IMG/VR virus record: IMGVR_UViG_2548876964_000020
Length of the DNA: 7,246 bases
Source: a virus
Lineage: Duplodnaviria; Heunggongvirae; Uroviricota; Caudoviricetes
Strand: one strand, 5' to 3'
Shown: positions 232-328 of the stretch, in pieces
How positions within the stretch are numbered: the first letter of the stretch is position 1
Layout of the letters: each line of letters starts with the position of its first letter
Made by a program: the position numbers and the translations under genes
The notes under the pieces: generated by a model
What the model was told of the DNA's origin: nothing
Databases searched by the model: none
Seen by the model: the letters and a program-made list of their open reading frames with translations, nothing else

Positions 232-261
232 TTGCGCAGCCTGATAAACCCTGGTTAAAAT
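232..261 (+). promoter_or_regulatory. Candidate sigma70 promoter for a short plus-strand transcript
   Basis: -35-like TTGCGC (232-237), 18-bp spacer, -10-like TAAAAT (256-261). Weak -35, so tentative. Confidence 0.3.
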
Positions 262-267
262 CCACAC

Positions 268-328
268 GATAACAACACAACAATATCAGTATCTCATGCT
301 ATTGCCCGAACCCATTCGGGCATTTTTT
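268..328 (+). ncRNA. Candidate ~60-nt small RNA: CA-rich single-stranded 5' region plus intrinsic terminator
   Basis: Predicted start about 7 nt after the -10. Body contains AACAACACAACAA (272-284) and ends in a 7-bp GC-rich hairpin (304-321) followed by T6 (323-328). No ORF. Antisense to the phage late-gene direction. Confidence 0.3.
304..328 (+). terminator. Rho-independent terminator (plus strand)
   Basis: Stem GCCCGAA (304-310) / TTCGGGC (315-321), loop CCCA, then A + TTTTTT (322-328). Confidence 0.6.

Follow-up and report, generated by a model that had tools for sequence, protein, structure and literature searches.

What is encoded by a short plus-strand unit, with an apparent promoter and terminator of its own, that lies opposite the late genes of a prophage? 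We addressed this question in the window, by which we mean the whole 7,246-nt stretch of DNA analysed. A sequence-only reading had taken the unit for a prophage anti-sRNA that mimics targets of the small RNA GcvB, and had floated AgvB as a precedent. This proposal was borne out by a full-length Rfam match (RF02702), identity to the known gene agvB1 at 108 of 108 positions and a published sponge mechanism. The flagged unit is almost certainly agvB, a gene of a lambdoid prophage of enterohaemorrhagic-type E. coli, with AgvB acting as a sponge for the GcvB R1 region.

Identity of the unit

Compared with the complete set of Rfam families, the window gave three matches at the gathering threshold: AgvB, STnc100 and a partial tRNA. 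The AgvB model (RF02702) matches positions 267-328 of the plus strand with 96.5 bits (gathering threshold 56, E = 2.2e-18). This match covers the entire model (positions 1-62 of 62), and all 62 bases agree with the consensus.

We used the E. coli O157:H7 Sakai genome record (NC_002695.2) as the reference for a 108-nt comparison that runs from promoter to terminator. Window positions 225-332 are identical at 108/108 nucleotides to prophage Sp10 (1941916-1942023, minus strand), and window positions 267-328 correspond, with no differences, to 1941920-1941981 (minus strand). The Sakai agvB1 copy sits between a TerB-like gene (ECs_1959) and a 1.85-kb ORF (ECs_1961).

AgvB was discovered as EcOnc01a and EcOnc01b, which are agvB1 in prophage Sp10 and agvB2 in prophage Sp17 of E. 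coli O157:H7 Sakai (Tree et al. 2014, PMC4104026). Table S2 of the same study places EcOnc01a/AgvB1 in Sp10 at 1941783-1941835 (minus strand) of an earlier record version (Tree et al. 2014, PMC4104026). These coordinates are offset by ~137 nt from the position in NC_002695.2. We take the offset to reflect the change of Sakai record version.

No feature was annotated at the agvB locus in the RefSeq and GenBank records inspected, which represents an annotation gap. The feature is the published and already known gene agvB, a rediscovery and not a new candidate, and recognising it in this window adds no new biology. The result does indicate that a first-stage reader was able to recover an experimentally validated regulatory RNA from raw sequence alone.

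Promoter, RNA and terminator

The unit comprises the following features.

232-237, plus strand: -35-like hexamer TTGCGC of the agvB promoter, read directly; 3/6 matches to TTGACA; invariant in 8/8 aligned members
238-255, plus strand: 18-bp spacer between TTGCGC and TAAAAT
256-261, plus strand: -10 hexamer TAAAAT, read directly; 5 bp before the Rfam AgvB start (267)
267-328, plus strand: AgvB anti-sRNA, 62 nt with its U tail (Rfam RF02702; identity to Sp10)
269-282, plus strand: seed, or target mimic for GcvB R1, with CACAACA (pairing, fold and published nuclease probing)
288-300, plus strand: small internal hairpin (AgvB nt 22-34) that opens the conserved 3' scaffold TATCTCATGC (MFE and centroid folds, Rfam structure)
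303-328, plus strand: Rho-independent terminator with an 8-bp stem, 4-nt loop and U6 tail (terminator scan, fold and conservation)

The promoter-like element described in the sequence-only reading (TTGCGC, 18 bp, TAAAAT) is thus present as claimed. Its -10 region, GGTTAAAA, is invariant across the cassette family, both in the family alignment and in IMG/VR copies. The promoter matches 8/12 positions of the sigma-70 consensus, and a sigma-70 consensus scan of positions 1-1000 called no promoter, that of agvB included. Support for the promoter therefore comes from its invariance in eight family members and from published 5' RLM-RACE, not from its match to the consensus. In that published work, TAP-dependent 5' RLM-RACE yielded primary 5' ends for EcOnc01 (Tree et al. 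2014, PMC4104026).

The CA-rich tract AACAACACAACAA occurs once in the window, with CACAACA at 276-282. The tract had been described as unstructured, which agrees with the predicted fold; its position is 271-283 and not 272-284 as first read. AgvB nt 1-21 are predicted to be unpaired in the MFE fold, followed downstream by the small hairpin and then the terminator hairpin. The predicted folding energy of the 62-nt RNA is -13.7 kcal/mol (z = -3.75), a value that 0/200 dinucleotide shuffles equalled.

The terminator stem-loop, TGCCCGAA-CCCA-TTCGGGCA, occupies 303-322 and is followed by T6 at 323-328. It is strong, as the earlier reading had recognised, and begins one position before the 304 given there. 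The U6 tail is presumed to be the contact for the proximal face of Hfq. Across positions 1-1000 we observed six terminator-like sites, compared with 0.9 expected from shuffles.

Complementarity to GcvB

The GcvB query came from an O157:H7 genome; it is flanked there by gcvA and ygdI and reaches 199 bits with the Rfam GcvB model. AgvB nt 3-16 (window 269-282) form 14 contiguous predicted pairs with nt 71-84 of GcvB, within its GU-rich R1 region. Twelve of these pairs are Watson-Crick (window 271-282). The duplex between seed and R1 has a predicted energy of -19.5 kcal/mol, and cofolding of the full RNAs recovers the same interaction (ddG -16.2 kcal/mol). The CA-rich motif, with its CACAACA, accordingly fits the GU-rich region of GcvB as had been proposed, and the R1 duplex whose prediction had been suggested is found.

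No other stretch on either strand of the 7.2-kb window matches R1 by Watson-Crick pairing over as many as 12 nt (runner-up, 9). Dinucleotide shuffles of the AgvB 5' part still pair with GcvB (z = -1.5, 73/1000 as good), and G-U-permissive runs of at least 14 to R1 are found at several other window sites. Because shuffles also pair and such runs are not unique, in silico pairing alone is weak evidence. Composition explains most of the pairing energy, and the 12-nt Watson-Crick run is the discriminating measure.

One candidate measure was rejected. RNAduplex of AgvB against whole GcvB returned -41 kcal/mol, an artefact of a calculation that ignores intramolecular structure and in which 30-nt window tiles score equally. 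R1-restricted tests and cofolding replaced it.

Published experiments and proposed mechanism

AgvB has been characterized in Sakai, which carries the identical sequence. AgvB1 gives a 60-nt Northern band that is destabilised in a delta-hfq strain, and CRAC found AgvB bound to Hfq as the most abundant unannotated Hfq-bound sRNA in Sakai (Tree et al. 2014, PMC4104026). In reporter assays dppA is freed from GcvB repression by AgvB. This relief is lost when 4 nt of the seed are mutated and is regained in compensatory G1 mutants with matching changes in GcvB and dppA (Tree et al. 2014, PMC4104026). The AgvB-GcvB duplex forms in vitro without Hfq (EMSA), AgvB leaves GcvB levels unchanged, and it was shown to act on GcvB in trans when supplied on plasmids outside the phage (Tree et al. 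2014, PMC4104026). A delta-agvB1 delta-agvB2 strain has a modest reduction in dppA translation (32%) and is a weaker competitor in bovine terminal rectal mucus (Tree et al. 2014, PMC4104026).

Other reports concern the RNA itself and its partner. Nuclease probing found the 5' and central region of AgvB to be single-stranded and confirmed the 3' hairpin. In vivo, RNase E CLASH gave 82 unique hybrids of AgvB with GcvB. Hfq speeds AgvB-GcvB annealing; AgvB has nonetheless been reported to be a sub-optimal sponge. AgvB is a textbook example of an RNA sponge carried by a phage: it rewires a core sRNA network of bacteria and aids EHEC growth at the site of cattle colonisation.

Our analysis of the window establishes the sequence identity, fold, complementarity and genomic context of agvB. 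By analogy with the identical Sakai sequence, the window's copy would also share the transcript, Hfq binding, direct pairing, dppA derepression and fitness effect. We infer that agvB is expressed in the window's source strain.

These elements would fit together as follows. Transcription would begin at about 267-268, opposite the phage late genes, from a sigma-70 promoter (232-261) that looks constitutive. It would stop at the intrinsic terminator (303-328) and yield a ~60-nt RNA. The single-stranded first ~21 nt of this RNA would present an ARN-type CA-rich tract with CACAACA, the GcvB R1 consensus in targets such as dppA. AgvB, helped by Hfq, would anneal to the GU-rich R1 of GcvB and occupy it. 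GcvB would then be blocked without being destroyed, and amino-acid and peptide transporter mRNAs would escape repression. The prophage would thereby re-tune host nutrient uptake during lysogeny.

A cassette family with exchanged seeds

We identified a member of the agvB cassette family in 867 of 5,426 complete E. coli genomes; for 621 E. coli records, identity of the best copy to the 108-nt unit reaches 99% or more. In a phage collection, 231 records contain a cassette member and one (PPyecE_EH1910) contains an identical copy. Identity to the 108-nt unit is ~85% in Stx1a phages and ~77% in Stx2a phages. The distribution described here covers E. coli and its phages. Genome contigs (596 Gb) were also searched with a very degenerate pattern, GGTTAAAA-N(18-45)-TATCTCATGC; the matches listed were due to chance, and 0/118 of them had the scaffold terminator.

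An eight-member alignment separates constant from exchanged parts. Neither the promoter region nor the first transcribed bases, CGA, vary, and the scaffold TATCTCATGC is likewise invariant; the terminator stem and T tail are kept in 7/8 members. Between these invariant zones the seed (~15-23 nt) is replaced wholesale. The full scaffold of the cassette is TATCTCATGCNNTTGCCCGAACCCANTCGGGC. In the family alignment and in 105 IMG/VR copies, the 3' region of AgvB (~42 nt, with the Rho-independent terminator) is common to AsxR and EcOnc03.

A pattern scan of IMG/VR yielded 105 true members. Their seeds fall into four classes: AgvB (37), Stx1/EcOnc03-type (31), a third type (23) and AsxR-type (14). 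Conservation of the CA tract, on which the sequence-only reading had made its proposal depend, is complete within the AgvB class: the AgvB seed has zero variation in its 37 copies. Only this class pairs well with GcvB R1 by duplex energy (-19.5 kcal/mol, compared with -11.5, -3.6 and -4.0 for the three others). By Rfam, the copy in phage 933W is AsxR (88 bits). The Stx1-phage variant scores 56.6 bits on the AgvB model, at the threshold, and is without CACAACA.

The seed classes CGATAAAAATGACAATGCAAG (Stx1 phages, EcOnc03-like) and CGATTATAAAAATGTA (UPEC and other prophages) do not pair well with GcvB R1. The literature on the cassette that we surveyed assigns no target to either class, and these seeds may sponge other host sRNAs.

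A divergent cassette copy lies on an 87-kb plasmid, cM8a_p2, of E. coli cM8a (locus L009, 1501-1599), beside IS3 elements and iraM. This variant has another seed, and its terminator stem is replaced by CACGC/GCGTG with pairing kept. The stem swap is consistent with selection on structure.

Genomic surroundings

The neighbourhood of agvB includes the following minus-strand features.

Start at 119, minus strand: DUF1737-domain ORF; its homologue is a DUF6645 protein in O157:H7 PV15-279
221-242, minus strand: terminator-like hairpin and T run overlapping the agvB -35; 9 pairs, 6 of them G-C, then TTTTTTCATTT
329-521, minus strand: STnc100 sRNA (Rfam RF02076, 144.5 bits, gathering threshold 47, model positions 1-206 of 206)
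716-1771, minus strand: N6_N4 DNA methylase moron, a neighbour of the agvB unit
2349-3167, minus strand: Q antiterminator, 273 aa (PF03589)

In the direction of transcription, the minus-strand gene order is DUF968, RusA, the 273-aa Q, a small ORF, the N6/N4 DNA methylase, a tRNA remnant, STnc100 and the DUF1737 ORF. AgvB, on the plus strand, is placed between STnc100 and the DUF1737 ORF, both on the minus strand. The unit is therefore antisense to the late operon, as the earlier reading had described: Q, methylase and DUF1737 ORF all lie on the minus strand. In other phages, the positional counterparts of the DUF1737 ORF carry the annotation SASA carbohydrate esterase or yjhS.

STnc100 and AgvB are convergent, with 3' ends that abut at 328/329, and the STnc100 terminator is at 358->341. 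STnc100 is paired with an anti-sRNA in 8/8 related loci checked (L001, L003-L009). A 2026 preprint links STnc100 to PasD sRNAs. Convergent sRNA pairs have been described at the moron insertion site, 3' of Q/PR' and between the morons and a conserved hypothetical ORF (Tree et al. 2014, PMC4104026). The window's layout matches the published one: a lambdoid late region, STnc100 converging on AgvB, and an ORF in the esterase position beyond. As a whole, the window is 99.9% identical to its closest relatives, O111:H8 EHEC prophages. These O111 prophages have an IS1203 insertion relative to the window.

The tRNA remnant (596-672, minus strand) has the anticodon CAU (ileZ/Met type). Rfam matches it in part (607-666, minus strand, model positions 7-64 only, 37.3 bits), its acceptor arms GGCCCUU (5') and ACAACGC (3') do not pair, and ARAGORN found no tRNA in the window. 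PGAP labels the identical element tRNA-Met in O157:H7 PV15-279, and the equivalent place in Sakai Sp10 holds the annotated tRNA genes ileZ4 and argO4. A minus-strand terminator (582->565) follows the remnant.

The Q protein (2349-3167) contains two PF03589 stretches and a weak match to a DnaJ-type zinc-finger domain. Sakai Sp10 and PPyecE_EH1910 have different Q genes, of 555 bp and 381 bp respectively, yet these adjoin identical agvB. This observation suggests that agvB moves between late regions independently of Q type. At the window's right end, an ORF (6691-7203, minus strand) has integrase-core (rve) domains and is probably a fragment of an IS3-family transposase.

Possible roles in cis and other readings

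The strand layout makes AgvB fully complementary to the late transcript. Two late-strand terminators, 358->341 and 242->221, bracket the agvB antisense strand, and the hairpin sequence of the second (221-242) is nearly invariant in the family alignment. With both terminators in place, the agvB antisense strand should be transcribed only under antitermination.

This arrangement raises the possibility of a two-state device, which we consider unlikely though worth stating, in which AgvB is a trans sponge in lysogeny and is neutralised in cis by late mRNA during lytic growth. Once the prophage is induced, late mRNA antiterminated by Q would continue past both minus-strand terminators and come to include a 62-nt anti-AgvB segment with a sequence resembling GcvB R1. 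Such an mRNA could titrate AgvB or destroy it via RNase III. If so, the host GcvB regulon would be switched back at the transition from lysogeny to lysis.

A rival reading is that the main role is in cis: AgvB, a perfect antisense to the Q-dependent late transcript, or its transcription would hinder late-gene read-through, or that transcript would titrate AgvB on induction, with any effect on GcvB secondary. The position of AgvB opposite the late genes, between Q and morons on one side and esterase/lysis genes on the other, would suit such a role, as would the two flanking minus-strand terminators. A fixed promoter and scaffold with 5' seeds swapped between phages instead fits targets in trans, and AgvB acts on GcvB in trans from plasmids. 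We therefore regard a mainly cis role as very improbable, and favour the GcvB sponge.

The weak consensus match of the promoter could suggest a silent relic, an agvB-like terminator and spacer left unexpressed in this prophage. A sequence from promoter to terminator that equals the expressed, Hfq-bound Sakai copy at 108/108 positions, together with conservation of at least 99% in 621 records, leaves this reading with very little probability.

The promoter and ~42-nt 3' scaffold, common to AsxR and the Stx1-phage variant, would also be expected of another cassette member (AsxR- or EcOnc03-like) directed at a different host sRNA such as FnrS. The identical sequence at locus L005 scores 96.5 bits on the AgvB model and 43 on that of AsxR (gathering threshold 63), and we give this assignment almost no credence. 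AsxR itself was rejected as an assignment: the window has no AsxR match at the gathering threshold, and the AgvB seed and the identity to agvB1 refute it. The alignment to AgvB and AsxR that the sequence-only reading had suggested thus returns the AgvB seed base for base and leaves AsxR below its gathering threshold.

The unit had also been called ORF-free, which is literally incorrect, since ORFs at 119-283 (minus strand) and 296-505 (plus strand) overlap it, and correct in that neither is supported as a gene. A small protein of 69 aa from ORF 296-505, which starts inside the unit, appears in the mechanical ORF list and has a PGAP partial pseudo 'hypothetical protein' nearby on the plus strand in the STnc100 region; we rejected it as barely conceivable, because the ORF starts in the sRNA 3' scaffold and crosses the terminator and the entire STnc100 antisense, in a region that matches two RNA families at high score.

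Comparison with known systems

The closest system to the agvB locus of the window is AgvB of Sakai Sp10. Both have the same partner (STnc100), the same position between morons and the DUF1737/esterase ORF and the same CACAACA seed. They differ in moron cargo only: Sp10 has another Q, together with ileZ/argO and a TerB-like gene, whereas the window has the 273-aa Q, a DNA methylase and a degenerate tRNA.

AsxR (EcOnc02, of Stx2 phage Sp5/933W, RF02703) resembles AgvB in its invariant promoter, 5' start (CGAT), convergence with STnc100 and esterase neighbour. It also shares the 3' scaffold, TATCTCATGC...GCCCGAACCCA.TCGGGC, and the U tail. AsxR differs in its seed (CGATTATTAAAACGAG), its target (FnrS) and its outcome, which is destabilisation of the sRNA. 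The AsxR-type seed reaches only -4.0 kcal/mol with GcvB R1.

SroC, which in Salmonella and E. coli stems from the gltIJKL mRNA, is likewise Hfq-dependent, pairs with GcvB and relieves the GcvB regulon of repression (Miyakoshi et al. 2015, PMC4474525). SroC has no Rfam match in the window, where agvB is a stand-alone prophage gene with its own promoter. In contrast to SroC, to which it has no sequence relationship, AgvB is a prophage primary transcript that occludes R1 and leaves GcvB levels unchanged.
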